DNA from: a virus
Lineage: Duplodnaviria > Caudoviricetes
Virus record (IMG/VR): IMGVR_UViG_3300028416_000009
Location: 28,108-92,107 of that record
Length of the DNA: 64,000 nucleotides
Strand: one strand, 5' to 3'
Position 1 is the stretch's first letter; each line of letters starts with the position of its first letter. Both the position numbers and the translations under genes were made by a program. Positions 7,878-50,104 of the stretch are shown here, in pieces. The notes beneath the pieces are model-generated. The model was not told where the DNA came from. It worked only from the letters and a program-made list of their open reading frames with translations, and did no database searches.

Positions 7878-7879
7878 TA

Positions 7880-7965
<86 letters not shown>

Positions 7966-8033
7966 ATAGATTAAAGAGGGTAACCTCTTTTTTTTATGCA
8001 ATATTTTTTATATTATTATAAAAACATCTCATT

Positions 8034-9008: not shown

Positions 9009-9860
9009 ATGAAGGATTATAGTAAAACTTTTCTTAAACTTTCGATAATATACTTATCGATAATGTTTTTTTTATTGTCTTGTGAGCAAGAACCATATTT
9101 ACGATTTGATGAAATCGACTCGATAGAGACTGAATCAAATATAGAGGAATATATTGAACATTATTTCGATATTGCCAGTGATTCATATACACAACCAGAC
9201 GGTGAAGATTATTTTCTAAAACCTCATAGATGGAAGTATGGTGGGTTTAACGGTACTGAAAAAATTGATGTTTATTTTGATGAGTCATTTGACAATATTA
9301 ATGCTAAAAATAACTTAATCAGTTTCTTTTCAGTCCTCGATAATATTATCGAAGATGAACTCATCAAATTTAATGTAGTTGATAATATTAACGATGCCGA
9401 TATAGTAATTGTATTTGGACATAATAACTTTCAGTCGATATTTGGTGGGGATGTTAACGATAATTGGTTAGGACAAGCGGTTACGGTAAATGAGCAAGAA
9501 TATAAGCAAGAATATAATAATGATAACATAGTTAACCCTGACATATGTTCTATCGTTGAAGGTAGATTTTGGGTTGATACTTATGACGAGTTATTAATTA
9601 AACATGAATTTCTACACGTGTTAGGTTTTATACATACAAATAAAAATAATTCAATAATGAATCATTATACAAGTCTGATGTCTAATTTAAAGGATGTTGA
9701 TGAAAAAGCGATTTACTTAAAGTATAATAATGATTTAGTTCAGGAGGTTATTGCCGTTCCTGGAGCAACTGGCTTTCCTAATTGGCTTTTCACTAATGAA
9801 GAATATGAAATTCATTTGGATAATGTTAGGTTAACTCTTGAAAATAGATTTAACTTATAG
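9009..9860 (+). CDS. Lipoprotein zinc metalloprotease (metzincin/M10-like)
   Basis: LLSC lipobox; HEFLHVLGFIH followed by SIM Met-turn. Confidence 0.8.
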   Translation: MKDYSKTFLKLSIIYLSIMFFLLSCEQEPYLRFDEIDSIETESNIEEYIEHYFDIASDSYTQPDGEDYFLKPHRWKYGGFNGTEKIDVYFDESFDNINAKNNLISFFSVLDNIIEDELIKFNVVDNINDADIVIVFGHNNFQSIFGGDVNDNWLGQAVTVNEQEYKQEYNNDNIVNPDICSIVEGRFWVDTYDELLIKHEFLHVLGFIHTNKNNSIMNHYTSLMSNLKDVDEKAIYLKYNNDLVQEVIAVPGATGFPNWLFTNEEYEIHLDNVRLTLENRFNL

Positions 9861-9994
9861 TATTATTAATATACAATAGACTTGTTTAAAACTAGTCGAC
9901 CCAAAGGTCTCAAACCTTATAAAAAAGTTGATGGTGGAGCACAATAAAATAAAAACCCTTTCTACTGAGAGGGTTTTTTTAAAACTTATTACTT

Positions 9995-10231
9995 ATGAAA
10001 ACAGTTAAAAACAATGAAGGTACGGTTAAAAGAGTTGATGACTCAACCGCAAATATGTTAGTTAATAGTGGTTCTTGGTTTTTTTGTCCAAAATCTGAAT
10101 ATAGAAAAACTAAAAAGGTTAAGAAGTCAAAGGACTCTTCCGAAACGGTTAATATAGAAAACAGGGGGTTATCCGATAAGAAACTAAGAAAAGAGAGAAA
10201 ACTTGCAAAGTCAAAGAGAAATAAAAATTAA
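9995..10231 (+). CDS. Small basic hypothetical protein
   Basis: ORF track; Lys-rich. Confidence 0.6.
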   Translation: MKTVKNNEGTVKRVDDSTANMLVNSGSWFFCPKSEYRKTKKVKKSKDSSETVNIENRGLSDKKLRKERKLAKSKRNKN

Positions 10232-10389
10232 TATCGAAGGATTTGATATTGAATTGACTGAAGGTGTTTATACTATCTCTAAAAATGGGATAGTATTAAA
10301 AGGGGATTTATATGAGTTACCCACCCCTCAGAAAACATGGTTAATTAACGCACATTCTTGCTCACAATCTTTAGTAAGAAGTTTAAATT

Positions 10390-11757
10390 TTGATAATAGT
10401 CTTGGGATTTAAAATTACTATTTTACATATATCGACACATATTCCTAACATATTCTTAGAAAGAAGAATGAGGGAGTTTACTCAATTTTATTTAAATCGT
10501 TTATCACAAAACAAACATCACGTTTTAAATGTTATAGATTGTAAAACCATCGATGATGGTCTAAGTCAACTCACCGATACTGATTATGTGTTTATTATTT
10601 CATCAGGTAATCGTATATATCGCTCTAACCTATTTTTAGATAAGGTTTTACAACCTTTTATGGATGACCCATCTTTAGGGTTAATGGGTCATATATTAGA
10701 CCGTAAAGACCAATGGTTTGAATTACACCCTCAGTTTGTTGTTTTTGATTATAAGAAATGGGTCGATATTGGTCGCCCAACATATGGTAATAAAGAGGAC
10801 AGTTCAGAGTCTATTGTTAGTATTGTTAGGTCAGAAAGTAACATACATGATGATTACACACCGCACTGGGTAAGATTAGAGAAACCAATTCAATATAATG
10901 AATACGATATTTTAGATAGGGGATGGGATTTTATTAATAGTTTTTTACTAAACGATTATAATATTAGTCCTTTTAATGATGATATACGTGGGTTAAAAGC
11001 GTATTGTTATCCTGAATATAATTCAGATAAGTTTTTTGAACTAATCGATAACAAGCGATATAGTGATGAGATTGATTATACTAAAAGAATTTTATTACAT
11101 TCATTATTAAACTCACCCGACAAGACATGGTTATTTAACACAGAGGAGATGTGTATTATGAAAGAAAAAACTGACATAACATACGATGTGGTTGCTTTAC
11201 CGTGTGCTGGTTTTAAATTTTTAGATTTATTACATAGCGATTTAATACATGAGAAAAGTAAAATCGTATTTTTTGACTTTAGTGAAAGTAGTGTTGAATG
11301 GATTAATTACGTTATTAACTCTGAAGAGTTAACCATAACAGACTTAGTATTAAACAAACCCGAAGAGGTCAAATTAATAGGTAAGACAATCGAAAAACTA
11401 AGTGTCGATGGGATTCCTTCAAATGATTTGATACGTCTCTCAGAAGAAGTTTATTCGTTTTATGGGGGTATTAATAATTTTATGAGGTTACTGAAAAAGT
11501 TTAGAACGTTAAACATAGAAATCATTAATACAGATATCATTAATGACCCACTAAATTGTTTACATCGGTTAAACGGTGATAATAATTTAATTAATATATC
11601 TAATATCTTTTCAACAGACTACTTTAATTTGTTTTACTCTGAAAAAGAACGAACAGATAAGTTTGAAAGATTTATTAAAACTTTAAATCGTAGTACAACT
11701 GTTGTTGGTCGAGGTGTAGATACTTATTATAGTGAAAAATCATACAATAATGGATAA
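10390..11757 (+). CDS. Hypothetical protein (possibly glycosyltransferase-like N-terminus)
   Basis: Long ORF; no decisive motif. Confidence 0.5.
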   Translation: MIIVLGFKITILHISTHIPNIFLERRMREFTQFYLNRLSQNKHHVLNVIDCKTIDDGLSQLTDTDYVFIISSGNRIYRSNLFLDKVLQPFMDDPSLGLMGHILDRKDQWFELHPQFVVFDYKKWVDIGRPTYGNKEDSSESIVSIVRSESNIHDDYTPHWVRLEKPIQYNEYDILDRGWDFINSFLLNDYNISPFNDDIRGLKAYCYPEYNSDKFFELIDNKRYSDEIDYTKRILLHSLLNSPDKTWLFNTEEMCIMKEKTDITYDVVALPCAGFKFLDLLHSDLIHEKSKIVFFDFSESSVEWINYVINSEELTITDLVLNKPEEVKLIGKTIEKLSVDGIPSNDLIRLSEEVYSFYGGINNFMRLLKKFRTLNIEIINTDIINDPLNCLHRLNGDNNLINISNIFSTDYFNLFYSEKERTDKFERFIKTLNRSTTVVGRGVDTYYSEKSYNNG

Positions 11758-11992
11758 TATTAGTGTTATTGAAGTCATGGGTCTATATGACGAAATGATT
11801 AAAATACAAGACGAGGATATCGATTTTGCCAAATCCAAAAAAAGTATCCCTGAATTTGATAATGATTTGGTTCTATATTACTATATTTGTGACTCATTAT
11901 TAAAGGACCTTACAATATTAGAAGAATACGAGTTATGTTCTAAGATTAAAACACTTAAAGAAAAAATAGAATATTCACTTGACGAAGATTAG
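11732..11992 (+). CDS. Small protein with UVR-like E-x-YE-x-C motif
   Basis: LEEYELCSKIKTL; true start probably ~11750. Confidence 0.6.
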   Translation: MKNHTIMDNISVIEVMGLYDEMIKIQDEDIDFAKSKKSIPEFDNDLVLYYYICDSLLKDLTILEEYELCSKIKTLKEKIEYSLDED

Positions 11993-12070
11993 ATTTTAAG
12001 AAATTTTTGACTTATCTTTACAGTGTAACAAAAACAAACGTTATTTACTTAATGGAAAATTAGTACTGAT

Positions 12071-12156
12071 GCCGTTGTGGTGGAATTGGTAGACACGTTG
12101 GACTTAAAATCCAATGGACAGTAATGTCCGTGGCGGTTCGAGCCCGCCCAGCGGTA
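12071..12156 (+). tRNA. tRNA-Leu(UAA)
   Basis: Cloverleaf with variable arm; ttgga-ctTAAaa-tccaa. Confidence 0.95.
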
Positions 12157-12158
12157 CT

Positions 12159-12249
12159 AAAGAGAGGTAGTGAAGCTACAATGATATAGAAAAAGGTAAG
12201 GGTTAACCTCTATATCGTAGTAACCCCGAAAGACCCGAAACTTCTCTTT
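12159..12249 (+). ncRNA. Unnamed structured RNA between tRNAs
   Basis: Nested stems aaagagagg/cttctcttt, gctac/gtagt, gatataga/tctatatc. Confidence 0.55.
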
Positions 12250-12253
12250 TTAT

Positions 12254-12327
12254 GGACTCGTAGCTCAGCTGGATAGAGCATCTCCCTTCTAAGGAGACGG
12301 TCATAGGTTCGAATCCTATCGGGTTCA
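12254..12327 (+). tRNA. tRNA-Arg(UCU)
   Basis: Cloverleaf; tctcc-ctTCTaa-ggaga. Confidence 0.95.
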
Positions 12328-12348
12328 CAAATTCTTAAAAAGAAACAA

Positions 12349-12537
12349 ATGGGGAAAAACAAACCAAACATCTTCAAGGGAAGAACAAAAGAATGGGATA
12401 TGGAGAAAGGTAAATTCAGACAGTATCGAAGTAATCAGGGTAGAAGTCCTGAACGAATGGAATCGTCATATAAAATTATGGGGATAGCTATTGTGGGGTT
12501 AGTGCTGATTTTCTTATTTCTACTTATATCTCAATAA
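12349..12537 (+). CDS. Small membrane protein
   Basis: C-terminal hydrophobic helix. Confidence 0.6.
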   Translation: MGKNKPNIFKGRTKEWDMEKGKFRQYRSNQGRSPERMESSYKIMGIAIVGLVLIFLFLLISQ

Positions 12538-12544
12538 CCAATAT

Positions 12545-12660
12545 GTAGAGTTAGTCAAATGGTACGACGCTCCAACCTTAAGACCGAAATCATCATACTA
12601 GTTACACGATGCGATTAAGTTGGTTAGGCAGAAGTAGGGGTTCGACCCCCCTACTCTACA
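12545..12660 (+). ncRNA. tRNA-like RNA with an expanded (~40 nt longer) anticodon region
   Basis: Acceptor GTAGAGT/ACTCTAC, D-arm GTC-aaatggtac-GAC, T-arm AGGGG-ttcgacc-CCCCT; no canonical anticodon loop. Confidence 0.7.
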
Positions 12661-12675
12661 GACTTCATAATATTA

Positions 12676-12749
12676 GGACTTTTAGCTCAGTTGGTTAGAG
12701 CACCGCACTCATAATGCGTAGGTCGAAGGTTCGAGTCCTTCAAGGTCCA
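12676..12749 (+). tRNA. tRNA with CAU anticodon (Ile2 or elongator Met)
   Basis: Cloverleaf; cgca-ctCATaa-tgcg; G1-C72 pair so not initiator. Confidence 0.9.
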
Positions 12750-12791
12750 CAAGTGAGTTCTTTGACATAACAATTAAATAAAACAGAAATT

Positions 12792-13127
12792 ATGGAAATA
12801 ACATCATTTATTTTAGGTGTATGTACAGTCATTGTATTAGTAATGGTTGTGGGTACGTTTGTGAACTACATGACAACAAAGTCCTTAAAAGAGGAAATAA
12901 ACCGACTGAATCGAGAAAACGAAATTCAGTATAACGAATCTGAAAAGATTAAAAAAGAACTAATTGATTATGTGGACAGTCTACATAATGTTAGTGAAAA
13001 TAACATGAACGAAGTCTACCGTCATATTGACAGTAGAGTCGATAAAACTGTGAATAATGTGAGCGAACACGTTGCAGAAATTTACAGACAATTAGATAGT
13101 AACAAAAAATCCGTAGTTAACGGATAA
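12792..13127 (+). CDS. Membrane-anchored coiled-coil protein
   Basis: N-terminal TM helix then coiled coil. Confidence 0.65.
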   Translation: MEITSFILGVCTVIVLVMVVGTFVNYMTTKSLKEEINRLNRENEIQYNESEKIKKELIDYVDSLHNVSENNMNEVYRHIDSRVDKTVNNVSEHVAEIYRQLDSNKKSVVNG

Positions 13128-13214
13128 TAAATAAAACGTTAAAGAACTCACTTTTTTTAATAAAAACCTCGGTCAATAGTTGTTAATACTTATTATTATT
13201 ACTAATTTTACATT

Positions 13215-13439
13215 ATGAAAGAACTACACGAATTACATATTGCAATGTTAAATACTTATGATATATTAGCTGAAAACATGACTGTTGAAGATGTTATGGT
13301 GAGTACTGAAAGTTTTATGTTGTTTGACCCTACTGAGGGTATAAACTCAGACACCTGTGATACCCTTTTAGAACATTTTGAAGACTTAGAGGAGTATGAG
13401 AAGTGTAAGACAATATTAGAGTATAAAAAGACGCTATAA
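13215..13439 (+). CDS. Small protein with UVR-like motif
   Basis: FEDLEEYEKCKTILEY. Confidence 0.65.
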   Translation: MKELHELHIAMLNTYDILAENMTVEDVMVSTESFMLFDPTEGINSDTCDTLLEHFEDLEEYEKCKTILEYKKTL

Positions 13440-14092
13440 TGGATACTGTATATCATGACAAAAGGGGTTATGAAAATATTATAGTAACCTTTTCAAGTGG
13501 GGTTAATAGGGTTTTAGGTGAAACCCCTAAAGAATTCAGTAAAATAATTACAAAATATAATTGTGATATTTTATACATTTATGACGACCTTCTTTCTTGG
13601 TATGTAAACGGAGTTAAAGGATATGAGTCGGTTAAATTACTTTCAGAGCACATTACAACTATAATTAGTGGATATAAAAATTCAGGATTTTTAGGGTCTA
13701 GTATGGGTGGTTACGCGGCCATATTATACTCGATATTTTGTAACCCAAATAAATGTTTGTCCTTCTGTCCTCAAACATTATTACAACATAAAAAAAGAGA
13801 CCTATTCAACGACTTTAGATTTCCAATTTTAGAAAAAAATGGAATAATGAGTAACTACTATTTAGACTTAAAACCTTTTTTATTTAAAAATGATTTTAAC
13901 ACGATAATATCTATCATCTATAGCGGAGACAATAAATTTGACCTTAAACATGCGGAATGGGTGTCATCGTCTGACAATATCACTCTTTATCCTCAAGACA
14001 GTGATTTACATAATATTTGTGGAGTATTAAAACATAGAGGACAACTTTATAGTACTATCGAAAATACTTTTAATTTTTTATCTATAAACTAA
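13439..14092 (+). CDS. Alpha/beta hydrolase-fold protein
   Basis: GSSMGG nucleophile elbow; downstream D and H. Confidence 0.75.
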   Translation: MDTVYHDKRGYENIIVTFSSGVNRVLGETPKEFSKIITKYNCDILYIYDDLLSWYVNGVKGYESVKLLSEHITTIISGYKNSGFLGSSMGGYAAILYSIFCNPNKCLSFCPQTLLQHKKRDLFNDFRFPILEKNGIMSNYYLDLKPFLFKNDFNTIISIIYSGDNKFDLKHAEWVSSSDNITLYPQDSDLHNICGVLKHRGQLYSTIENTFNFLSIN

Positions 14093-14137
14093 ATAAAAGG
14101 CTTATCTTTGTAGTGAACAGAAAAACAGATAAAGGTT

Positions 14138-14377
14138 ATGTCAACAGAACTAAAAACACTTAAAGGACAGTTTCATAGTCAAAAGACTAATGAGATGGAG
14201 AACACTGAAATGTCATTAACACGATTCAGTGGTGGTAAAGAAGGGATGAAACTTCAATTAACAATGAGAGAGCAAGGAGACTTCTTTACTCATATCACCC
14301 TTAATACCGATGAGATAAAAAAACTAATTAAGGAACTACAAGATAATTTTAATTTAAAAGAAGAAACTGATGTCTGA
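14138..14377 (+). CDS. Hypothetical protein
   Basis: ORF with TATCTTTG promoter at ~14103. Confidence 0.6.
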   Translation: MSTELKTLKGQFHSQKTNEMENTEMSLTRFSGGKEGMKLQLTMREQGDFFTHITLNTDEIKKLIKELQDNFNLKEETDV

Positions 14378-14624
14378 TTATTATGATAATAGTGACGATA
14401 CGTTTGACAATAGTTTATTAGATGACTATATTACAACAACGTTAGATGAGATACAGAGTCAATACGTAATACCTAATGGTACTAAAGATATTGAAGTTGT
14501 TGATGAAATTGAAGTTATTGGTGATACCAAAATACTTTATACTAAATCAGGTAAGTCATTTGCCGAACATCAAGTGGAGAATATCGGAGTAGTGTATGAA
14601 TACGTTACTAAAGATAGTGAGTAA
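14370..14624 (+). CDS. Acidic hypothetical protein
   Basis: ORF track; overlaps upstream stop. Confidence 0.55.
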
Positions 14625-14628
14625 AATA

Positions 14629-14714
<86 letters not shown>

Positions 14715-14717
14715 AAC

Positions 14718-14791
14718 GGTCTGGTAGTTCAGTTGGTTAGAATACATGCCTGTCACGCATGGGGTCGCGAGTTCGAATCTCGTCCAGACCG
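14718..14791 (+). tRNA. tRNA-Asp(GUC)
   Basis: Cloverleaf; catgc-ctGTCac-gcatg. Confidence 0.95.
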
Positions 14792-14801
14792 CTAAAAGAA
14801 G

Positions 14802-15242
14802 ATGAAGATGAAGGGGAGAATATTGTTATTGACATTATTTTTAAGTAGTATGGTGTGGTCACAGAATTGTTCACCATATTATAAAGTTAAAAATTGGGAC
14901 GTGAATCAGGATGTATTTGCAACTGTTTCATTAATTAGTTGTTTTCACGCATACGGTGTCGCAACATCAATAGATTGGTATGACTACTCTGTAGGATTAC
15001 ATATGATGAGTAAAGGACATAACGGTACAGTGTATGGTTTTGTTAGTTACCAATACAGACCAATCAGGAAGGTTAAATTATCTGCAGGTCCATTATATCG
15101 TATAAACAACGATAGTGGTTTATTGTTAGGGCAGTATGGTGGTGATGTTTATATCTACAAACGAGTTTGGTTAACAGGTAGAGTTTTACAAATAAGGAGA
15201 GGTTTAAATTATCTTAATGTAGGACTAAAAGTGGTGATATAG
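14802..15242 (+). CDS. Secreted/outer-membrane beta-barrel-like protein
   Basis: Signal peptide; alternating beta-strand pattern. Confidence 0.5.
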
Positions 15243-15252
15243 TAAGTATCAT

Positions 15253-15324
15253 GGCCCGTTCGTCTATCGGCTAGGACGCCAGGTTTTCATCCTGGTAAGA
15301 GGGGTTCGATTCCCCTACGGGCTA
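15253..15324 (+). tRNA. tRNA-Glu(UUC)
   Basis: Cloverleaf; ccagg-ttTTCat-cctgg. Confidence 0.95.
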
Positions 15325-16012
15325 CTTAATGGAAGAGAGGAAATCGGGATTCAGAAATGAGTCCCTTTTTTTATCGTTATCTTTAAATTATTTTGTATAT
15401 TTACCACGTTAAATAATATAAAATATGACACGAACAATAATTGATGGGGTTAGATACCTGAAAAGAAAAACAACAACAGAGCTTACTGCGGATGAGAAAA
15501 AGAAACTTCTAAATGGAGAAATCGTTATGTCTCATTACGCCACAGATTACTTTTTTTATAAAATAATTAAATAGAAATATGATAACAGAATTTGAAGTAC
15601 TAAACACTTACAGTAAACTTAAAAACGGGCATTACGGAGAAATAGGTAGTTTCGCTCACCATAAGACGTGTAGTCTAATATGTGTTGGTTCACTATTAAC
15701 TGATGAAATGGATGAATTTAGAAAAAACTTTAAAGATGAATTATGGGATTGGTTTTTACAATCTAAAGATTATTACTATAATTCATTACATAAGAACCTT
15801 TAAATAAATAAAAATGTGTCTTCGTCTTCGTGGGTGTAGTAATCTTCGAAACCGTCGATAGTTGTAATGATGATTTCATTACTATCAATAGTCCCCTTAA
15901 ATACATTATTTGATTTATCGGGCATTGGTAAAAGGTTAATAAATGTTGGTTTTTATGTAGTAGAGACCTACATTTTATAAATAGTGAAAAAAAAACGAAT
16001 CTCAGGTTAAAT

Positions 16013-17701
16013 ATGAAAATATTATCAATAAATTTTGGATTTAATGGAAGTTTTTCTCTTCTCGTTGATGGTAAGATTATAAAACACACTTCATTCCATA
16101 AAATTAATTATGGAAATGACCGAAACATCATAAAAGATACGAGTCTTTCTTCTTTTATGTGGGGTGCGGATGTTACATTAGATGAAATCGATTGGGTCGT
16201 ACTTGTTGGGTATAAAGAATCTGACTTCAACTTCGATAGAGTTGCCTTTGTTCCCGAGAGCGAATACGAAATTAGTCCTCACTACACTCGAAAAGATTTT
16301 AGATTGGATTCAAAACAAGTTACCGACTTAGGGTCGTTAAATCCTCCATTCACTAAAAAACCATATGACTATATTAAGGGGCACTTTATATATAAAGACT
16401 TTGTTATTAAGTCGTATATCATTTCTCCTGATTTGTCTTACAATGCTTATGGATACCTAACGTCTAACTTCACAAATTCAATTAACATAACCGTTAGTAG
16501 TTTTGATGAGACACCTGTAGATGGGTCTGTTGTTTCAGTAAGTAAGGGTAATAACATTTCTATAGTGAATAGACCGATGATATCCGTAGGTAAACTCTAT
16601 CCTAAAATAACCGAATTATTAGGTTTTGGTTTGGGGTATTTAAATAGGAGTACGTTGTGTGATATGTCCACCAGATATAATATACCTGAGAACTTAAAAG
16701 ACATAATCGACGAGGGGGTTAACAACCCACTTAGTAAGATAAAAGACAATTACGAATTAAACTTTTTCTTTCAACACAGTACGTCTCAATACAAACAAGA
16801 CGAAAAAAGACATAAACAAATACCTTTTTCTTCGTTTAATGTGGACGATATTAATAGTAAATACGCACTTAAAACTGCGGCTATCACACAAAGAGTTATT
16901 GAAAATACTGTGATAAAACTAATAACTGAAAGTGTTAATAATTATTCAGGTAACTTTACTCATAACATAACACTTAGTGGTAGTGTGTTTGAAAACCGAA
17001 GACTTAATACTAAAATATTACAGACCTTTCCAGAATTAAACATTCATATTTCACCATTTAATAGTGAAGAAGTAACATCATTAGGAGGGGCATTATACGT
17101 TAATATGATAGAAGGAACTCGAAGAATCTATAATAGAGACTTTATTTTATCAACTTCCCCGTATTATGGTTCGTACGAAAATTTAGGTGACGAAATTAAC
17201 TATTCCGACTTGTCGTTAAAATTAAAAACTGACCTGATTGGGTATAAAACTAATAACCCTGAGTGTACAGAAAAGAGTTATGGCTATACCGGGATACTAT
17301 TTGATGTTAACTCTAAGGGATTTATAAATACTAAATCATTAATGATTAAAAACCCTTTTGAGAAACCTGTTGTCCTAATAAGTGAAGAATTTTATGTTAA
17401 ACATTTTAATAATGTTAAATACACATACAATAACAATACATTGTCAAAACCTAAAAAACCACATCTATTTAAGGAGTTTATTCATGATGATGGTTATGTT
17501 AATTTGTTTGTTGTTAATGAAACTGTTACACCATTCTTACACCGTATATTAAAAAATACTAATAATGAATATTTGGGTCATTATGACTTTACTAGTGTGA
17601 AAAATAAACATATTAATTATATTCAGACTTTATTTGAAATATCGGACGATTTAGATATTAAAACTTTAATTATTGATAATAAAATACACCACATAGAATG
17701 A
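16013..17701 (+). CDS. Divergent carbamoyltransferase (NodU/CmcH)-like protein
   Basis: MKILSINFG..SLLVDG start, SVGKLY, LSGSVFEN..LN, SLGGA; ~560 aa two-domain length. Confidence 0.65.
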   Translation: MKILSINFGFNGSFSLLVDGKIIKHTSFHKINYGNDRNIIKDTSLSSFMWGADVTLDEIDWVVLVGYKESDFNFDRVAFVPESEYEISPHYTRKDFRLDSKQVTDLGSLNPPFTKKPYDYIKGHFIYKDFVIKSYIISPDLSYNAYGYLTSNFTNSINITVSSFDETPVDGSVVSVSKGNNISIVNRPMISVGKLYPKITELLGFGLGYLNRSTLCDMSTRYNIPENLKDIIDEGVNNPLSKIKDNYELNFFFQHSTSQYKQDEKRHKQIPFSSFNVDDINSKYALKTAAITQRVIENTVIKLITESVNNYSGNFTHNITLSGSVFENRRLNTKILQTFPELNIHISPFNSEEVTSLGGALYVNMIEGTRRIYNRDFILSTSPYYGSYENLGDEINYSDLSLKLKTDLIGYKTNNPECTEKSYGYTGILFDVNSKGFINTKSLMIKNPFEKPVVLISEEFYVKHFNNVKYTYNNNTLSKPKKPHLFKEFIHDDGYVNLFVVNETVTPFLHRILKNTNNEYLGHYDFTSVKNKHINYIQTLFEISDDLDIKTLIIDNKIHHIE

Positions 17702-18330
17702 TAGGAGAAAACCCAACCACCAAAAATGAATTAAATGAAATTTTATCATCAAACACTTTTAGAACGAAAGAGTTTAATCAGGTGTATAGTTTTTCTAACT
17801 CATTTGATGAATCTGAAATCCAACACATTATTGATTACTGCTCAACACTACCAGCGGTAAACGCCGAAATTGGTAGTGATATGGAATCAGAAGATATAAA
17901 TGAAGGGGTTAGAAGTTCTATTGTTAGGTGGGTTCCAATGAACGAAGAGACCAAATATATTTACGAACGACTAATCAATATGGCATTAGAAGCTAATAAT
18001 GAGTTATGGGGGTTTGACGTAAATAGTATTATAGAGGAAATACAATATACCGAATATTATGGAACTAACGACGGTCATTACGATTGGCATTTAGACATTG
18101 GAGATGAAATCGACTATCGTAAAATATCAATTACAGTACAACTCTCTGATAAGGACGAATATGAAGGAGGTCACTTAGAAATGAAAACAGGTCCTATAGA
18201 TTTAATCACACCCAAAGAAAAGGGATTATCAACAATATTTCCTTCTTTTATGTTACATCGGGTGAATAAAGTAAAAACAGGGCTTCGTCGTTCTTTAGTG
18301 TTATGGATTAGTGGTCCACCCCTTAGGTAA
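17698..18330 (+). CDS. 2OG-Fe(II) oxygenase
   Basis: YDWHLD...RKISITVQLS...FPSFMLHRV..V..G.RRSLV.W. Confidence 0.9.
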   Translation: MIGENPTTKNELNEILSSNTFRTKEFNQVYSFSNSFDESEIQHIIDYCSTLPAVNAEIGSDMESEDINEGVRSSIVRWVPMNEETKYIYERLINMALEANNELWGFDVNSIIEEIQYTEYYGTNDGHYDWHLDIGDEIDYRKISITVQLSDKDEYEGGHLEMKTGPIDLITPKEKGLSTIFPSFMLHRVNKVKTGLRRSLVLWISGPPLR

Positions 18331-21997: not shown

Positions 21998-22414
21998 GGG
22001 GGTGACTTGGAATTGATTGGCAGGGTCAGTTATACGGGGCACGTAGTGAGATGTTTCCTATCACTTTAATCTACGGTGACAATTTTTTTAGACGGCAACG
22101 TTTACAACGAGATGGCAATGTTCGGCTTAGTGGCTGACGAAGCTATCGTTAACGCATAGTTAGACTACGTGTTAACAGTAACCCACTCTAAGAGTCGGTT
22201 ACATGGGGTCGGTCAGGACACATAACCTAGCAACAGAAGTCCGCAGTGTGGTAGAGTACGATTAAACCCTAAATTGAATCGTTCATTGGGTGTTGGTTGC
22301 AATGATAAATAATAACCAACAAATTTCGGAGTATTAGAAAATACTGACCTAAACGTGTAGTCCTTTATAGGTGGACTGAACAAGACCCGGGTTCGAAACC
22401 CGGCACCTCCACCA
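21998..22414 (+). ncRNA. ssrA: tmRNA
   Basis: 5' GGGGGTGA...GAATTGA; 3' T-arm ccggGTTCGAAAcccgg, CACCTCCACCA with G3-U70; internal tag ORF 22094-22159. Confidence 0.93.
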
Positions 22415-35325: not shown

Positions 35326-37710
35326 TTAAAGATTTTTCAACTCTGGTGGTAACATACTAACAGGTATGCCGAATTTCTTCTTTTCAGGACCGCCTTTAAA
35401 ATTAAATCCATCAATTGATGTCTCATATCCATTAACACTTGCCCATGTCTTATGACCAGCATTTAGAACTTGTCCGACAACGAATGGGAATCTAATGTTA
35501 TATTTGTTTATAATGTCCACAATCTGACCGTTAGGGTGTTTCTCCACAGTAATAGTCACTTTAGGGTTAACTATTTTTCTAAACACAACCTTATCGACTC
35601 TTCTTCTCATAAATGAGTTATCTTCATTTAAATCTTGAATCTCATCAACAGTGGTTACTACTTCAGGGTAAATCATACCTAAATTTTTATCGTCTTTACC
35701 TTCGTAATCTACTTTATTTAGAACTGTTCTAATTGAGTTAAGTGCTCCCGCTCTTTTATCGTTTGTGTCTACAACTGACCATGGAATTACCTCGGCAGTT
35801 TGTTTCAATGCCTTTTCTTTGTATTCAGTATAGTCGTCCCACTTATCAATAGAAGCCTCATCGTTAGGTGAGAATTTCCAATACTTAAGTGGTGAGTTCT
35901 TTCTCATATCAAAACGTTTCCTTTGTGTGTCTTGTGTTATAGATAACCAAAACTTAAAGACATCGTATCCTTTGGATAAAAGTGAACTTTCAAAACTACC
36001 CACATTCTCCATAAAGTCAGAATATTCTTCCATTGTTGAGTATCCCATAACTGGTTCCACAATACCTCTATTATACCAACTTCTGTCAAAGAATATGATT
36101 TTACCTGATTCGATTTCTCTTTCGTATCTATCAAACCAATTCTTTTTTTCTTCGGGGGTTGGTATTCCTAAAGCAACTACCTTATAGTATTGTGGTTGTA
36201 GGTATTCTATAAATTTTTTAATTGTTGACCCTTTACCTGCCGAATCCCTACCTTCAAATACAATAACAACAGATTTACCTGTTTTCTTAACGTGTTCCTG
36301 TAATTTCAATAGTTCTACCTGTAAAGGTCTTAGTTCTTTTATAAATGATTTTCTACCGATTTTAGATTTTTCTTGTTCCTCATCATCATCAACGAAATAA
36401 CTATCTTCGTGTTCAGGTTCAGGAGAAACTCTATCGGTAAGTGATTTCTTATATTTTTCGATATATTTTATGACATTATCTTCTACGTTACCAGACTTAA
36501 GTGATTTTCTATCTAAATTACGTAAAAAATCTTTGGTAACATCTTCATCTGTTAATCCAACAATAAGGTCATCGTATTTGGATGGTTCGATATCTAACTC
36601 ATAAAATTTAGTTAGTAAGTCCACTACCGATTCATTGAGTGAATAAAGTTTTGTTGCAAACTGTTCTTTATTATTATACAAATATTGTAAAACCTCAGGT
36701 CTTAGATATGCTTTTAAATCATCAGTAAATAACGAGTAAACTCTATCTATTGGTTTATTACCATCTTCATTTGGTAAATATGAATCGACCTCATCTTTGG
36801 TTACGAACGGGAATTTTAATTGGTATTCCTCTAAACCCTCTTTGGGTTTTATACCTATTGAGTGGTATTTAGTACCTCCGGACATTAATTCTCCACGATT
36901 AAGTATTCTATCGATTAAACCATATTCACCCAATAATGGGCACATACTGTAGTATATAGACCTTTCTTCTTTAACTAAACGTGCAAAAATAAATGTAATA
37001 TTAGTATCCTTAAAACAAGTCATTAAAAACTCTGACTTATCTTCTTTACTATAATCATCACTCCTTAAGAAAGTCATTACGTTTTTTAGTGATTCATCAT
37101 TTTCGTTGTCCTTATATTTAACCCTCTTATACTTATCGAATACCCCCTTATAAGAACCTAGTTTAAAACGTTCTGTACGTTTAATACCATCTGAAACGAT
37201 TTTTAAAGAATAATGATTACCCTTAATTATAATGTCCGCTTTTGGGTTCTTTTCATTGTTTGACGGGTCTTCATAATTTAATTTTGCGGTTGTTTCACCA
37301 CCAAATAATCCTGCGAATATTCCTTCAAACGAGAAACCTCTACCATCGGTAGTTCCTGAAAATCTGTTCCAATACTCGTGAAATCTAATCCTATCTTTTA
37401 CCTTTAATGCCTTATCAGGGTTTTCATAATTAACACCTAATTTAAGTCTCATTGCATTCCCTTCATCTCCTTTCATGATACCTTTTACCATATCCGAAGA
37501 TGCTATGTTGTCCATGTGTATACCGCCTAACAACTTAATTGCCTTAATTATATGGTCTTCAGACGATTCATTAAGAATATTGACTATCTGTTTATTTGTG
37601 AATTTTATCTTCATTGTTTTAACGTTATGTATATAAATATTAAATAATTCACTAATTATGTCTATAGTATAATATAAAACATAATTAACTCTACTTTTGG
37701 TTTTAACCAA
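35326..37710 (-). CDS. ppk2: Multidomain protein containing polyphosphate kinase 2 (likely start ~37614, MKIKF)
   Basis: FEGRDSAGKG Walker A, FDRSWYNR, PLKYWKFSPND; N-terminal FE...ADI...YSLK nuclease-like region. Confidence 0.85.
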   Translation of the reverse strand: MVKTKSRVNYVLYYTIDIISELFNIYIHNVKTMKIKFTNKQIVNILNESSEDHIIKAIKLLGGIHMDNIASSDMVKGIMKGDEGNAMRLKLGVNYENPDKALKVKDRIRFHEYWNRFSGTTDGRGFSFEGIFAGLFGGETTAKLNYEDPSNNEKNPKADIIIKGNHYSLKIVSDGIKRTERFKLGSYKGVFDKYKRVKYKDNENDESLKNVMTFLRSDDYSKEDKSEFLMTCFKDTNITFIFARLVKEERSIYYSMCPLLGEYGLIDRILNRGELMSGGTKYHSIGIKPKEGLEEYQLKFPFVTKDEVDSYLPNEDGNKPIDRVYSLFTDDLKAYLRPEVLQYLYNNKEQFATKLYSLNESVVDLLTKFYELDIEPSKYDDLIVGLTDEDVTKDFLRNLDRKSLKSGNVEDNVIKYIEKYKKSLTDRVSPEPEHEDSYFVDDDEEQEKSKIGRKSFIKELRPLQVELLKLQEHVKKTGKSVVIVFEGRDSAGKGSTIKKFIEYLQPQYYKVVALGIPTPEEKKNWFDRYEREIESGKIIFFDRSWYNRGIVEPVMGYSTMEEYSDFMENVGSFESSLLSKGYDVFKFWLSITQDTQRKRFDMRKNSPLKYWKFSPNDEASIDKWDDYTEYKEKALKQTAEVIPWSVVDTNDKRAGALNSIRTVLNKVDYEGKDDKNLGMIYPEVVTTVDEIQDLNEDNSFMRRRVDKVVFRKIVNPKVTITVEKHPNGQIVDIINKYNIRFPFVVGQVLNAGHKTWASVNGYETSIDGFNFKGGPEKKKFGIPVSMLPPELKNL

Positions 37711-40055: not shown

Positions 40056-40790
40056 ATGATTAACAAAGACTTAAACATACGAGAGTTAAAATATCAATTT
40101 TTAAAAAACGGTATTGTTACAATTAATGATTGGTTAGATGAAGAATACGCAGAAAAACTGTGGAATCATTTAAATTCAATGCCTCAAGATTGGTGGAATG
40201 TTTCGTCCAGACCGTCTAAAGACCAAGACATGCACATTACAAGATGGACAGAAGATAATCTAGATTATATTAAAACATCTGATGAAACTGCTAGAAAGGC
40301 TTTTAGTGAAGACAAATTTTCTTATAGTTTTAGAAGGACAAACGATGACCACGTAGATGGTTGTTGGTGTGAGGAATGTCAATTCAGACATGACGTACTG
40401 TCAGAAGAGGTAGTATCTTTTTTAGATTATTTAACAGGATATAAAGTAACAAAAATTAATGAGTTATTTGCTTCGTGGTATACGGATAGAGATTTCTTAT
40501 CTCCTCATAGTGACGGACCAAACGGGGTGTTAGGGTTTGTATATAACTTAAGTAAAGATTGGAAACCTCAATATGGTGGTAACTTACATTTTCAAGATAA
40601 AATGAACGAAAACTTGATTGAGAAAATAAATGTTCCTAAATTTAATACACTAACGATGTTTGATTTAGCTACGAGTATGGGTCATATGCACTACGTATCC
40701 GAAGTTGTACCAAATGTAAAGGCAAAAAGATTAGCCATGGCCGGTTGGTGGGGACAAGAAACAGGTAATAAAAATACATTAAACTATTAA
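40056..40790 (+). CDS. 2OG-Fe(II) oxygenase (prolyl-hydroxylase-like)
   Basis: LSPHSD, WKPQYGGNL, HYVSEV, RLAMAGW. Confidence 0.88.
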   Translation: MINKDLNIRELKYQFLKNGIVTINDWLDEEYAEKLWNHLNSMPQDWWNVSSRPSKDQDMHITRWTEDNLDYIKTSDETARKAFSEDKFSYSFRRTNDDHVDGCWCEECQFRHDVLSEEVVSFLDYLTGYKVTKINELFASWYTDRDFLSPHSDGPNGVLGFVYNLSKDWKPQYGGNLHFQDKMNENLIEKINVPKFNTLTMFDLATSMGHMHYVSEVVPNVKAKRLAMAGWWGQETGNKNTLNY

Positions 40791-40791
40791 A

Positions 40792-41424
40792 ATGGAATTA
40801 AAAAACACAATAGGTCACTTTGAAGGAGCATTTACTCGTGAAGAGTGTGACTTAATTTTAGAAAGATTCGAAAGAGCAAAAACATTAAAATTAGCATATC
40901 AGGGACAATCAGGTTCAGGAGTGAACGATACAATAAAATCATCGATTGATTTTGATATTCTTTCGTCACCAGTAGAAGACGATGTATTATTTGGTTATGG
41001 TGTAATTGAAAAATTTAATGAAATTGTTGTAAACCAATATTTAGGTAGTTTCCCTCACCAAGACGAGACTAAACCAGGTGAGGATTTATTCTTGGCACCT
41101 ACTTTCTATGAACTACTACAGGTTCAAGAATATCCTAAATCTACAGGTCACTATAACGCATGGCACGCAGAGACAGGAACCTTCGAAATGAGTAGAAGAT
41201 TATTTTCTTTCTTACTTTACTTAGACGACGTAGAAGAAGGTGGAGAAACCGATTTTATATATGCCAATGGCGAAGATGGTAAAATGTTATCATTCAAACC
41301 GAAAAAGGGTACATTATTAATTCATCCAGCGTCTTTCCCTTATATACATAGAGGAAGAACCCCAATGTCTTCAAATAAAACAATATTAACCACGTGGCTA
41401 TCATATGAACCTGAATACGAATAA
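40792..41424 (+). CDS. 2OG-Fe(II) oxygenase
   Basis: WHAE, YLDDVEEGGET, YIHRG..P. Confidence 0.88.
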   Translation: MELKNTIGHFEGAFTREECDLILERFERAKTLKLAYQGQSGSGVNDTIKSSIDFDILSSPVEDDVLFGYGVIEKFNEIVVNQYLGSFPHQDETKPGEDLFLAPTFYELLQVQEYPKSTGHYNAWHAETGTFEMSRRLFSFLLYLDDVEEGGETDFIYANGEDGKMLSFKPKKGTLLIHPASFPYIHRGRTPMSSNKTILTTWLSYEPEYE

Positions 41425-42019: not shown

Positions 42020-42095
42020 AAATTTTTATATTTTGCTTTATTTATAATAGAAATAAATGTAAACTTACAATAGTAAAAACACAATAAAATAGTAT

Positions 42096-42983
42096 ATGTC
42101 TAATACACAATTAAGTACAATTGCCACCCTCGTCTCTAGTAAGATGAATAACATCATAGGGAAGGTAAACGAACATACAAACCAAAAAGCTGATATTGAT
42201 AGTCCGTCATTTACAGGTGATGTTTCTATTCAAAACTTAGGAAGTGATTTAGTACCGTCTAATAACGGATTATATAATTTAGGTTCTTCAACTAAGAGGT
42301 ATGGGAAAACATACACTGAAGAATTATATGTGTCAGATATTTTAAAAGTCACTAAAGAATCGAATAGCGTTATTTTTAGATTTACTTCGAGTGATACTAC
42401 AATTACAGATAGTATTGCAATTACTGACGGAGGAAAAGTAAAAATTAGTGATTCATATTCATTACCGTCATCTGATGGTACATTAGGACAAGTAATGGCA
42501 ACCGATGGTAATGGTAACGTCATCTTTAAGACAATTGAAAATGAATCGGCAGATTTCGCACAATACATACTAAGTACTGATTTTACTTCTGATGGTTCTA
42601 CAACATCATATACAGTAGAGGCGACAACATTAAATAAAGTTCTTTATGTGGAGTTAAATGGTCTTATACAGAAGAAGGGTACTGACTATACTGTTAGTGG
42701 TAAGGTTATTACATTCGCTGAAGCTCCACAGTCGGGGATGTCAGGTACTATCATGTTTTGGGGTAATGATATTACGTCAGCAGTTTCTACTACAGATATC
42801 ATAGGAAATGGTTCTACATCTAACTACACTACGACGGATACTTTAAATAAGGCTATATTAGTCGAAGTTAACGGACTCATCCAAAAGAAAGGTGTGAACT
42901 ATACTGTAAATGTCGTTAATAGTCGAATAGAATTTACTGACCCACTTCCATCAGGTTCTACAGGTACAATAGTCCACGTATAA
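42096..42983 (+). CDS. Tail/baseplate structural protein with two repeated beta domains
   Basis: KADIDSPSFTG, LPSSDGTLGQVMATDGNG; two copies of GST..YT...VE.NGLIQKKG..YTV. Confidence 0.7.
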   Translation: MSNTQLSTIATLVSSKMNNIIGKVNEHTNQKADIDSPSFTGDVSIQNLGSDLVPSNNGLYNLGSSTKRYGKTYTEELYVSDILKVTKESNSVIFRFTSSDTTITDSIAITDGGKVKISDSYSLPSSDGTLGQVMATDGNGNVIFKTIENESADFAQYILSTDFTSDGSTTSYTVEATTLNKVLYVELNGLIQKKGTDYTVSGKVITFAEAPQSGMSGTIMFWGNDITSAVSTTDIIGNGSTSNYTTTDTLNKAILVEVNGLIQKKGVNYTVNVVNSRIEFTDPLPSGSTGTIVHV

Positions 42984-42984
42984 T

Positions 42985-43248
42985 CGACGAAGTCGTTTCC
43001 GGCGTACGAAAGACACTACAAAGTTAATTAAACTCATCAGAAACGATGGGTTTTCTTTTTTATAGACAATCTCAACAATCCGACGAAGTCGTTTCCGGCG
43101 CATGAAAGGGACTACAAAGTTAATTAAATCGATGGTTTTACGAGGGAAATCGTCAATAATTTAAAAAGACCCCCATTCAGACATTTCTTCAACAAAACCA
43201 CCAACCGACGAAGGTCGTTACCGGCGTATGAAAGACACTACAAAGTTA
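42985..43248. repeat. Three ~43-48 bp direct repeats with unique 48 and 77 bp spacers
   Basis: CGACGAAG(G)TCGTT(T/A)CCGGCG(T/C)A(C/T)GAAAG(AC/GG)ACTACAAAGTTA at 42985, 43081, 43206. Confidence 0.9.
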
Positions 43249-43352
43249 GTTTTAGACTTCTAATTTATATCTCTTAAGAATATTACAAAATACATCAGTA
43301 ATTCGTTAACCCACTCCCATTCGGTCGTGGCAAACACGATTTACAGATTTAC

Positions 43353-44183
43353 TTATAATGAGTGAGAAGGATATTCAGAGGAAGAAGTGTTTAGTTCTAT
43401 ACCTAATAACTCATTAAATAATGGGTTTATATGTTTAGCAACTGAAGGGAGTAAGGGTAATGTGAACTCATACGAAGGGTGTGTATAAATTTCAATGTCT
43501 CCGACATTAATGTTCATGGGACACATTTTTATTAGTTCCTTCTGATACTCCATTACAGAATCACATAAAACCTGTGATAAGGAATCATCTTCCATATACT
43601 CAGTAAACTGATGTACAATGTGAGGATGATGTTTATCTAAAAGGTATTTACTATAATCATCTTCATCAGGGTACGGAAGGAGGATATCCTTAAGATAATC
43701 TTCTTCAGTTATGTTTAATCCGTAGTTATCATCTATTACGTTTAATTTAAGGAATATCTCTCTTAGTATACAGTATTCTAATATCATTATATTAGGAACA
43801 TCATCTAAGTGATTATTATCCAAGATATCCTTATAGGTTTCAAATAAAAGGTATCTCATATCATTCGTTACAGAGACTTCAATTAAACGTACAAAGTGTT
43901 TATCCATAGGGTTACTCACATTATAGTTTATAAGTTTACTATCACATTTAAGTATTAGTTCTCTTAATGTAAGTATTTCTTGAATATATCTTTCATTATC
44001 CTTATACTTAGTAAGGATACCATGTACTACATCATATACAGGTATTTTGAATCTATTATCCCATATACTTTCTTTAAGAATCTTATATGTTGATAAATTT
44101 ACTTTCATTACTATGATATTAATATTTGGAAAGATTATATTTGTATTACTTAGAAAGTAATCAAAGGTCCGCGGCCTTACCAC
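43353..44183 (-). CDS. Hypothetical protein adjacent to repeat array (start may be ~44108)
   Basis: Long ORF; no recognised motif. Confidence 0.55.
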   Translation of the reverse strand: MVRPRTFDYFLSNTNIIFPNINIIVMKVNLSTYKILKESIWDNRFKIPVYDVVHGILTKYKDNERYIQEILTLRELILKCDSKLINYNVSNPMDKHFVRLIEVSVTNDMRYLLFETYKDILDNNHLDDVPNIMILEYCILREIFLKLNVIDDNYGLNITEEDYLKDILLPYPDEDDYSKYLLDKHHPHIVHQFTEYMEDDSLSQVLCDSVMEYQKELIKMCPMNINVGDIEIYTHPSYEFTLPLLPSVAKHINPLFNELLGIELNTSSSEYPSHSL

Positions 44184-44498
44184 ATAAAATAATATATATA
44201 GAGAAAAAAAAGTATAGTGTTACAGAGGGAAGAGATAGAACGTATAGAAAAACAAAGGTATAGAATCGTAGAAACTAAGATTCGTAATATAGTCTCTTAT
44301 GTGGTAGAATATAGAACCTTTAATTATATCATCTTTAAAACATGGAAACCCATAGTGATGTGTAATACCTTCGATGAATGTGTGAAAAAGATAGACCGTT
44401 TAGTTAGTTTAAAAATAAGTGAATTTTAATTTGTCTTTTACGAATAAATAGATTAATATAATTATATGGGTTCATAAATTAATACCCTTAATAGAATT

Positions 44499-45100: not shown

Positions 45101-45730
45101 GTGAGTCTAATGATGAGAACCCCAAAGATAGAAAGAATAAAGGTAGGTGATTACTACGTTTATACTACGGAATTTCAAAAAATAAAAGATTTAGACGACG
45201 ATAAGTTAATTAAAGATATATGGTCTGATGATTATTTAGGTACTAATAAGAATGAAGATGGTGTTATAGTAGACCAAGGACCTGGGGTACATTTTTCATT
45301 GGATGTTGATAACTTACCTTACTTCGCAAATGACCCTTATTGGTTTGCATTGACATTCGCTCGTTCACTCAGAAGTTTAGAGGGTAAAAATTTAGACTTA
45401 CTTAATTCTACATTATGGATTATTGCCGCACAGGACGAACATACACCATATTGGCATACACATCGTAAAAATATCGCAGACCCAAGAATTGAAGGTGATG
45501 ATAATCAGGTCGATTCGACTTATTCGTTTTCCTTTTACTTAAACACTTTAGAGTGTGGTTCCCCATATTCTGATTTATTATTTGCACACAAAGAAGACGT
45601 ATACTCAATGCCGGTTACTAAAGGTAAGATGTGTTTCTTTGATGGTGATGTATTTCATAAACCAAAGTTAGTACCTAAAGAATTTGGTTGGAGGTATTGT
45701 ATTGCGGGTGACTTACTATTTCATGAATAG
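45101..45730 (+). CDS. 2OG-Fe(II) oxygenase-like protein
   Basis: WHTH...FYL...FDGDVFH.P...RYCIAGD. Confidence 0.65.
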   Translation: MSLMMRTPKIERIKVGDYYVYTTEFQKIKDLDDDKLIKDIWSDDYLGTNKNEDGVIVDQGPGVHFSLDVDNLPYFANDPYWFALTFARSLRSLEGKNLDLLNSTLWIIAAQDEHTPYWHTHRKNIADPRIEGDDNQVDSTYSFSFYLNTLECGSPYSDLLFAHKEDVYSMPVTKGKMCFFDGDVFHKPKLVPKEFGWRYCIAGDLLFHE

Positions 45731-49332: not shown

Positions 49333-49497
49333 ATGAACTTGAAGTCTGATGTTTGGAATCTAATTTTAGAAACGGTTAGGAAATATCCTAATGATATGGA
49401 GTTAGGTGAATACGTTCGTCGGAAAACACTTTCATACGAAAGAAGACAACAAAGAAATAAAAATACACACTTAAAAGATAAGAATGATAGTAATTGA
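49333..49497 (+). CDS. Small hypothetical protein (54 aa)
   Basis: Manual ORF MNLKSDV...YPNDMELGEYVR. Confidence 0.55.
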   Translation: MNLKSDVWNLILETVRKYPNDMELGEYVRRKTLSYERRQQRNKNTHLKDKNDSN

Positions 49498-50104
49498 TAA
49501 TTTTGTCCAAGATGAAAATCTACTAAAAAGAATAAGAGAGTCCTTAACTCAAGAGAACTCAGAATTTTGGGGTAGTCACGGAAACTACGCTTGGTATGAA
49601 GGTTGGTGGAATAGAAAACCTGAGACATTAAGGGAAGAATTAATTGAATATATTTGGGGGACTCATTGTCCGTTAAAGGAAGATTTAAAAGTCGAAGGGT
49701 TTGAACATTGGACGGGTATTCAATCCGCTTCTGACCAAACAAAAGAGGACCATTTAAAACAACACTTTGATAAAGACGAAGACCTGTGGCATTTTACAGG
49801 AGAAGTTAAAAGACCCGTAATCGGCACCGTTTACTACCCAATAGAACACGATATTGATGGTGGTGCATTACAAGTTTGGAACACCTACGAATTAGATTAT
49901 GATGCCGGATATGAACAAATACACCCAAAACCAAATAGACTTATCATATTCGATGCAGGTCAATTACATAGAGTACAACAAGTAACGAGAGGGACTAGAT
50001 ACGCAATTGCAATCAATCTATGGGATTACAAACCATTAACTATTGAAAATATAGAATCAAAGAAAGGTACGTTCTACGAACAACAAGACCAAGGACTTAT
50101 TTAA
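49484..50104 (+). CDS. 2OG-Fe(II) oxygenase
   Basis: HFDKDE, GGAL, NRLIIFD..LHRV, RYAIAINLW. Confidence 0.85.
   Translation: MIVIDNFVQDENLLKRIRESLTQENSEFWGSHGNYAWYEGWWNRKPETLREELIEYIWGTHCPLKEDLKVEGFEHWTGIQSASDQTKEDHLKQHFDKDEDLWHFTGEVKRPVIGTVYYPIEHDIDGGALQVWNTYELDYDAGYEQIHPKPNRLIIFDAGQLHRVQQVTRGTRYAIAINLWDYKPLTIENIESKKGTFYEQQDQGLI

Follow-up and report, generated by a model that had tools for sequence, protein, structure and literature searches.

In an uncultured giant marine phage, the 369 nt between two converging genes hold three direct repeats, each with a small hairpin and a promoter-like box, and the three repeats, both spacers and the tail are kept in all five relatives that we recovered. 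The element is real, ancient for its lineage, non-coding and under constraint. We tentatively read it as three tandem promoter-plus-leader modules on the minus strand that would make small or antisense RNAs, although our confidence in that reading falls somewhat short of even.

The window analysed here is a 64,000-nt stretch that forms the right-hand part of a viral record of 92,107 bp with 32% GC. The record's estimated completeness is 28%, which implies that the phage genome is very large. The window carries a tmRNA gene, 8–9 tRNA genes and numerous auxiliary metabolic genes. The tmRNA is full-length (21998-22414; Rfam, 82.5 bits), and ARAGORN places eight tRNA genes in 7518-15325; a 116-nt tRNA-like Rfam match at 12545-12660, possibly an interrupted or atypical tRNA, has no ARAGORN counterpart. 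Regions 17698-18330, 40056-41424, 45101-45730 and 49484-50104 belong to a set of genes that could serve nucleotide or DNA modification: 2OG-Fe(II) oxygenase-like genes, five or more in number, together with a methyltransferase, an APS-kinase-like, two cytidylyltransferase-like, a carbamoyltransferase-like and a dCMP deaminase gene. The tetranucleotide CCGG occurs 32 times across the 92-kb record against 63.7 expected from base frequencies, and one of these sites lies in each repeat (3 of 32).

All five relatives (L018, L019, L020, L021 and L022) came from one repeat-pattern scan of metagenome contigs, which also returned two further loci that proved to be chance matches. Identity to the window is 94–99% for L018, L020 and L022, 89.6% for L019 and 80.6% for L021, the most distant; L022 is part of a 235,874-bp contig. 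A repeat-pattern scan of IMG/VR gave seven loci, each a single chance match within unrelated sequence, and protein-based scans of IMG/VR with the 251-aa gene, a 465-aa gene and a nine-sequence alignment yielded no relatives, while the tail-fibre-like gene found only short matches of 28–32 residues. Among GenBank phages, neither blastn with 2.4 kb nor tblastn of the 251-aa gene and of a 614-aa gene produced a match, and the phage's ClpB-like ATPase matches 201 GenBank phage records that single out no one lineage. The record ends (window position 64000) 21.0 kb to the right of the array and the contig of L022 ends about 19.6 kb away on the same side; that two independent assemblies stop so close together hints at a possible physical end of the genome or at a terminal repeat.

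A repeat search of the window returned a single family of three direct 48-nt copies, the other two having 92% and 77% ungapped identity to the first; once a loop longer by 1 nt is allowed, the third copy starts at 43206 (Table 1). A 28-nt core, with up to three mismatches, matches three times in the window and never in 100 shuffles. Across the whole record, a search that the initial annotation had proposed along with one of the relatives, the core finds the same three matches only, and no sub-motif of the repeat was found elsewhere in the 92 kb. That annotation had described three repeats with 48- and 77-bp spacers and a CGAC-GAA(G)-GTCG hairpin in each, and both points hold: the copies are direct, 48–49 nt long, and their hairpins read CGAC-GAA-GTCG in R1 and R2 and CGAC-GAAG-GTCG in R3. 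Start-to-start spacings are 96 and 126 nt, repeat GC is 0.42–0.44 versus 0.32 for the genome, and on the minus strand each copy reads TAACTTTGTAG. The spacers (43033-43080 and 43129-43205) have the lengths first given, but they are not wholly unrelated as had been claimed: both begin with CGATGG(G)TTTT-like words and finish with TCAACAA-like words, which implies that more than 48 nt were duplicated originally. The end first assigned to the feature, 43340, runs beyond the repeats into a separate long hairpin. Compared with the rest of the 92 kb for similarity or complementarity, the gap scores 28.2 bits at best, against a mean of 27.3 and a maximum of 32.2 for shuffles.

Table 1. Features of the repeat-bearing gap and its flanking genes (window coordinates).
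Feature	Position	Strand	Description
Upstream gene	42096..42983	+	295 aa; weak tail-fibre-like match (PHROG tail fibre, E 2.9e-9)
Non-coding gap	42984..43352		369 nt between the two converging genes; contains all array parts
Repeat R1	42985..43032	-	Within the 3′ untranslated end of the + gene, 2 nt past its stop codon
CGAC-GAA-GTCG hairpin of R1	42985..42995		Equivalents at 43081-43091 (R2) and 43206-43217 (R3)
TAACTTTG -7-type box in R1	43019..43026	-	Motif
Intrinsic terminator of + gene	43030..43063	+	9-bp stem (43030-43053), then T-run
Repeat R2	43081..43128	-	48 nt
TAACTTTG box in R2	43115..43122	-	Motif
Repeat R3	43206..43254	-	49 nt; hairpin loop longer by one base
TAACTTTG box in R3	43241..43248	-	Motif
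AT-rich conserved stretch	43255..43293		39 nt, from R3 to the long hairpin
Long conserved hairpin	43294..43348	-	Directly past the stop codon of the minus-strand gene
Converging gene	43353..44108	-	251 aa, conserved hypothetical protein

Against L022, L019 and L021, respectively, the gap is 98.6, 93.2 and 91.6% identical, the + gene 95.5, 89.1 and 77.5%, and the minus-strand gene 98.7, 93.7 and 79.0%. The lead of the gap over both flanking genes in L021 argues that the entire non-coding region is under constraint; this contrast depends mainly on that one distant relative, and in L019 the gap is no better kept than the minus-strand gene. The gap differs at 8.4% of positions from L021 and 6.8% from L019, whereas third codon positions of the flanking genes differ at 35–44% and 13–25% (for L021, 44% in the + gene and 35% in the minus-strand gene), and the differences within the gap show no codon-position bias. 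In a sliding window the gap is among the best-kept stretches in 8 kb; other nearby gaps (42020-42095 and 44430-44498) have 64–70% identity to L021. Conservation is as strong in the spacers and the AT-rich stretch as in the repeats. Differences among R1, R2 and R3 are mostly preserved in each copy's orthologues, which places the triplication before the split of the lineages and indicates that each copy has been maintained separately. The initial annotation had made the element depend on conservation in related phages, and the array is indeed kept in five of them. Its view that the locus is non-coding also stands. ATG-led frames of 11–20 codons exist in R2 and R3, but the R2 frame is shifted by a 1-nt indel between close strains (the window versus L018 and L022) and the R3 frame is shortened by a new stop in L021, so neither is coding.

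Both flanking genes are real, as their differences to the relatives are concentrated at third codon positions (45/25/130 differences to L021 at positions 1/2/3 in the + gene and 53/19/87 in the minus-strand gene). The initial annotation had called the minus-strand frame an orphan ORF at 43353-44183: a gene is there, but its start is the ATG at 44108, giving 251 aa. Eight homologues of its product, 243–251 aa in length, were found with identity down to 48%; P0003-P0008, one of them on a contig of 129,592 bp, lie at 48–59%. The protein matched no Pfam or PHROG family. Structure prediction, suggested at the outset as a check, gave a low-confidence AlphaFold2 model (mean pLDDT 62.7) for which Foldseek found nothing in the PDB at E <= 0.001; a wide VIA-align comparison reached a best Z of 6.3, to helical repeats, and was uninformative. 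This gene is exchangeable as a cassette: up to 43359, L018 shares 97% identity with the window, after which unrelated sequence replaces the 251-aa gene (one case), and the conserved block likewise ends near 43359, a few bases beyond the stop codon of the minus-strand gene. The replacing sequence (L018:2042-2247) contains a + frame rich in cysteines. A second strongly conserved gap, 44109-44216 (93.5% identity to L021), contains a TATATTTGTAT promoter box on the + strand (at 44136) and a near-palindrome rich in GC, AAGGTCCGCGGCCTT; the 251-aa gene and the downstream + operon are probably controlled divergently from this gap.

Each gene is followed by a terminator or a likely one. In each of the four lineages, the intrinsic terminator of the + gene is more stable on the + strand (-7.0 to -10.3 kcal/mol) than on the minus strand (-2.1 to -5.9), and in L022 a C-to-U change preserves a U-G pair. 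At the other end, the long hairpin, which folds at -20 to -23.9 kcal/mol when read on the minus strand and at about -15 on the other, probably terminates the 251-aa gene. Its stems do not vary, the three changes in L021 all being confined to the apical loop. R1 thus lies in the 3′ end of the + transcript, and R2, R3 and the AT-rich stretch lie between the two terminators.

The box in the repeats is of a known type: TAnnTTTG is the -7 box of Bacteroidota promoters, according to the available text of PMC10309648. Within the window, 35 of 103 TAnnTTTG sites are intergenic, although intergenic sequence makes up 13.9%; many of the intergenic sites stand 17–33 nt ahead of an ATG and one stands 16 nt ahead of tRNA-Thr. 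By this placement, TAnnTTTG appears to be the working promoter box of the phage. A TAnnTTTG(TAG)-type motif had been noticed in each repeat on the minus strand, and TAnnTTTGTA is kept there in 18 of 18 repeat copies (six sequences), the sole change inside the box being a C to G in R1 of L021, at a free 'n' position. The longer TAnnTTTGTAG has nine sites in the record, five of them on the + strand and three of those 30–40 nt ahead of an ORF. Apart from those in the repeats, the TAnnTTTGTAG boxes at window 35006 (+) and record 14310 (+) have no same-strand gene downstream and face the 3′ ends of minus-strand genes, one of which is a PPK2-domain gene (35326-37710); promoters of this orphan, antisense-facing kind may recur in the phage.

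The surroundings of the repeat boxes are more equivocal. A matrix built from 17 gene-proximal promoters of the phage scores their flanks at -2.2 to -4.5; real promoters have a leave-one-out median of 4.7 (quartiles -2.9 and 8.5), and 111 sites inside genes have a median of -13.6 (75th percentile -8.4, 95th percentile 0.4). The repeats thus fall among the lower-scoring real promoters and outscore three-quarters or more of the sites in coding regions. As first reported, there is no clear -33 box: the TTG present in the phage's gene-proximal promoters is absent from all repeat copies. None of the repeat boxes has a downstream gene, and, a few boxes at terminators aside, no other intergenic box in the window lacks a same-strand gene within 5 kb. 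The + strand of the gap contains no TAnnTTTG, so that if the gap is transcribed from within, its centre is transcribed on the minus strand. Judging from sequence, the repeat boxes look like plausible but not strong promoters.

Beyond the two terminators, RNA structure is supported only for the 4-bp CGAC/GTCG hairpins; sequence is conserved, not pairing. These small hairpins fold at about -2.3 to -3.2 kcal/mol on either strand, and their stems are intact in 17 of 18 copies, the exception (R1 of L020) being a G-U pair on the + strand only. The fold energies of the units do not differ from those of shuffles (z -0.75 to +0.81), and RNAalifold detects almost no covariation, with one or two compensated pairs on either strand. 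The larger stem of the leader (GTCTTTC/GAAACGAC) is broken without compensation in R2, in R3 and in R1 of L021. A minus-strand stem after R3 (H3) shows a G-C to A-U change and is very weak (-2.3 to -0.1 kcal/mol). In the lineage of the window, a 9-bp hairpin after R2 reaches -7.9 kcal/mol on the + strand and -2.5 on the minus strand, but it is lost in L019 and L021 (-2.8 kcal/mol). We found no convincing terminator after R2 or R3, the candidate hairpins there being weak or unkept. A long-range pairing of spacer 2 on the minus strand (-17.6 kcal/mol) occurs in the window's lineage only, with other pairings in L019 and L021, and was discounted as a conserved structure. Rfam has nothing at gathering score at the locus; its best match in E-value mode (E 1.4) falls well short of that threshold.

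Parts of the region occur in eighteen RNA runs, of which four seawater metatranscriptome runs (X1, X2, X3 and X7) were compared as assembled contigs, which carry no strand, start or end information. Contigs over the + gene end at 43016, 43014, 43006 and 42992, the first three in three runs from three studies. A minus-strand transcript from R1 would presumably start near 43012-43015, if we assume the usual box-to-start distance of Bacteroidota promoters; the first three contig ends fit that start and the 3′ end of the + mRNA equally and are a weak hint at most. One contig (X2, 43296-43517) comprises the 3′ end of the minus-strand gene plus the hairpin. Although both flanking genes are covered in the four runs, 43037-43295 is not; contigs drop rare and short RNAs, so the missing cover says nothing firm about expression.

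In the arrangement that we tentatively favour, each repeat would present a host-type (Bacteroidota sigma-A) -7 box, TAACTTTGTA, followed by about 32 conserved transcribed bases that end in the small CGAC/GTCG hairpin. R3 and R2 would each give rise to a short non-coding RNA, about 80 nt long if transcription stopped close to the following module. The RNA from R1 would be antisense to the tail-fibre-like gene at its 3′ end, and all three would be sibling RNAs with the same 5′ end. Short non-coding RNAs are the likely products because the modules sit between the terminators of converging genes with no gene downstream. The difference in hairpin loop, 3 nt in R1 and R2 versus 4 nt in R3, would be tolerable for a single-strand hairpin, but not for a dimer site in duplex DNA. 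That the boxes fire, where the transcripts would start and stop, and that RNA rather than DNA would be the functional product are points that we infer from sequence. Several findings count against promoter-plus-leader modules. Besides the missing -33 TTG, the want of a convincing terminator after R2 and R3, the shuffle-like fold energies, the near-absence of covariation and the uncompensated breaks in the larger leader stem, the wobble changes (in the terminator, in the small hairpin of L020 and in the post-R2 hairpin) favour the + strand, and promoters alone leave the conservation of the spacers and the AT-rich stretch unexplained.

A bolder version strikes us as improbable. It would make the array a new phage family of sibling RNAs from repeat-embedded promoters, with a common 5′ scaffold of about 32 nt (a protein handle or seed) and differing tails that serve as Cas-free decoys or guides against a host factor; in a variant, the same promoters would prime a transcription-dependent origin of a giant Bacteroidota phage. 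The guide or decoy RNAs with variable 3′ parts proposed in the initial annotation fare poorly: conservation of the spacers between lineages is close to that of the repeats, the supposedly variable part after R1 is simply the terminator of the upstream gene, and no target complementarity was found within the phage record.

The gap could instead act as DNA, the repeats being iterons bound by a phage or host protein at an origin (possibly transcription-activated), a packaging signal or a multi-operator region; we regard such an assembly site as unlikely on balance, if a serious contender. Its strongest support is that the 369 nt are conserved fairly evenly, including parts without predicted RNA structure, which suits a nucleoprotein site better than isolated promoters. 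Conservation of primary sequence rather than pairing points the same way, as do the retention of the repeats in L018 despite the loss of the neighbouring gene and the presence of three direct repeats next to an AT-rich 39-nt stretch, the last being weak evidence for an iteron origin in a genome that is 68% AT. The GC-skew analysis that had been recommended shows no origin-like turn at the locus: cumulative skew tracks gene direction only. Nor is any replication, partition, terminase or recognisable DNA-binding gene nearby (by Pfam, the 94 window ORFs have auxiliary metabolic functions), and the 251-aa neighbour shows no DNA-binding fold, though its model is poor. The spacing of the repeats moreover shifts by 1 bp between close strains (96/126, 96/125 and 97/125), which, together with the differing palindrome spacing between copies, speaks against strict helical phasing. 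A reading that we consider less probable still reverses the functional strand, treating the repeats as a triplicated 3′-end module (hairpin, conserved sequence, stem-loop) that acts on the mRNA of the tail-fibre-like operon through stability, processing or regulated read-through, with the box incidental. The position of R1, with the strong + terminator next to it, fits this. So does the + strand preference of the 9-bp hairpin after R2, and since spacers 1 and 2 open with the same word, a stem-loop arm would lie within the duplicated unit. G-U pairs are kept on the + strand only in three of four changes in the post-R2 hairpin, in the terminator change and in the L020 hairpin change. Against this stand the loss of the post-R2 hairpin in L019 and L021 and the position of R2 and R3 beyond a good terminator, where only read-through could reach them. 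An incidental TAnnTTTGTA is also unlikely to survive in every copy with a change only at a free position; we estimate that about 6% of random 48-mers of this composition would carry the six fixed bases on either strand.

Two further readings carry much less weight. A neutral leftover of local tandem duplication, with no function of its own, would account for the single locus without another copy in 92 kb and for spacer ends that betray a larger duplicated unit, but we consider it very improbable, as the gap changes 2–5 times more slowly than the neighbours' third codon positions, the nearby gaps fall far lower in L021, and copy-specific differences are preserved across lineages. The other takes the repeats for a mini-CRISPR array of the phage, or for a set of solitary repeat units, RNA anti-CRISPR mimics directed at a host CRISPR system. 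As far as the available text of the two sources goes, flavobacterial type II-C arrays have repeats of 46–47 nt, each with an embedded promoter (PMC10309648), which the 48-nt length and in-repeat promoter element recall, and phage-borne CRISPR repeat mimics exist (PMC10651486) and offer a precedent. We nevertheless consider this reading largely refuted and give it next to no credence, in line with the original verdict that the array is not CRISPR-like. The spacers are unequal (48 and 77 nt) and conserved between lineages 20% apart overall, being kept in L019, L021 and L022 about as well as the repeats, and spacer 1 is a terminator. Pfam shows no Cas, TnpB or IscB family among the 94 window ORFs (13 + 81), and no Rfam family, CRISPR-DR included, could be assigned even at E up to 10. 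The core pattern, with 19 exact bases required, gave two single chance matches in 185,579 genomes, and BLAST of the array against 401 Bacteroidota genomes gave one marginal hit, to the AT-rich part. Of the same genomes, 69 are Cas9-positive, and Cas9-linked arrays were collected from 40 of these: the 40 loci (L058-L097) gave 36 usable consensus repeats, type II only, the others being two masked N runs and two loci with no usable array. One of the 36 outscored every one of 200 shuffles and three exceeded the 95th percentile, with an alignment score of 11 for the best common stretch; these Bacteroidota and type II sets may not include the repeats of the phage's host. By length, the Cas9-linked repeats form two classes, 36 nt (period 63–66 nt) and 44–47 nt (period 74–77 nt). 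Their periods, 63–77 nt overall, differ from the 96 and 126 nt of the phage.

To our knowledge, the non-coding control elements of uncultured giant marine phages are almost entirely undescribed. This gap is sharply bounded, older than the split of lineages that are 20% divergent and better kept than the surrounding genes, so it clearly has some role. Should the promoters carried by the repeats be active, the phage would make several related RNAs, small or antisense, next to a tail-fibre-like gene; should they be silent, the site becomes a candidate for an origin or a packaging signal. Either outcome provides a first handle on regulation in this phage group.

Among known systems, sibling small-RNA genes occur in multiple copies, often in tandem, as in PrrF1/PrrF2, LhrC1-5 and OmrA/OmrB. 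The promoter-plus-leader modules proposed here would resemble them in consisting of adjacent intergenic copies, each with its own promoter element and a common segment plus a copy-specific remainder. They differ in that the phage array is known from sequence, no clear terminator follows R2 or R3, neither a target nor a stable conserved fold was found, and the carrier is a lytic-type giant phage. Promoters can also serve replication: the primary origin of phage T7 combines two promoters with an AT-rich stretch, and oriF and oriG of T4 are promoters with such a role. Closely spaced intergenic promoter copies by an AT-rich stretch, with no obvious coding target, are common to these origins and, with its putative promoters, the array, but in our phage the AT-rich stretch is upstream of those promoters, not downstream, and there is no skew signal.

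The type II-C arrays of Flavobacterium, with 46-bp repeats, match the array in having a repeat of about 46–48 nt with an inner promoter element, as far as the available text describes them (PMC10309648), but the phage spacers are lineage-conserved, cas genes are absent from the window and the repeats show no likeness to the 36 Cas9-linked ones. Repeats of 48 nt with an inner promoter in a Bacteroidota phage thus need not be CRISPR-related. The nearest published concept, within what the available text of the sources covers, is the PeSL, a composite early-promoter/stem-loop cassette of T4-type phages (PMC4122927, PMC2839356); PeSLs form series of elements within variable regions and are implicated in indels (PMC4122927). 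In contrast to PeSLs as described there, our array has three tandem copies at one locus and none elsewhere in 92 kb, and its boxes point against the upstream gene with no gene downstream. Like them, it is built from a short conserved unit of predicted promoter and stem-loop, here TAACTTTGTA and the CGAC/GTCG hairpin, in a variable accessory-gene region of a large phage, and it marks a point of gene exchange: just beyond its stop codon, the 251-aa gene gives way to unrelated sequence in L018.
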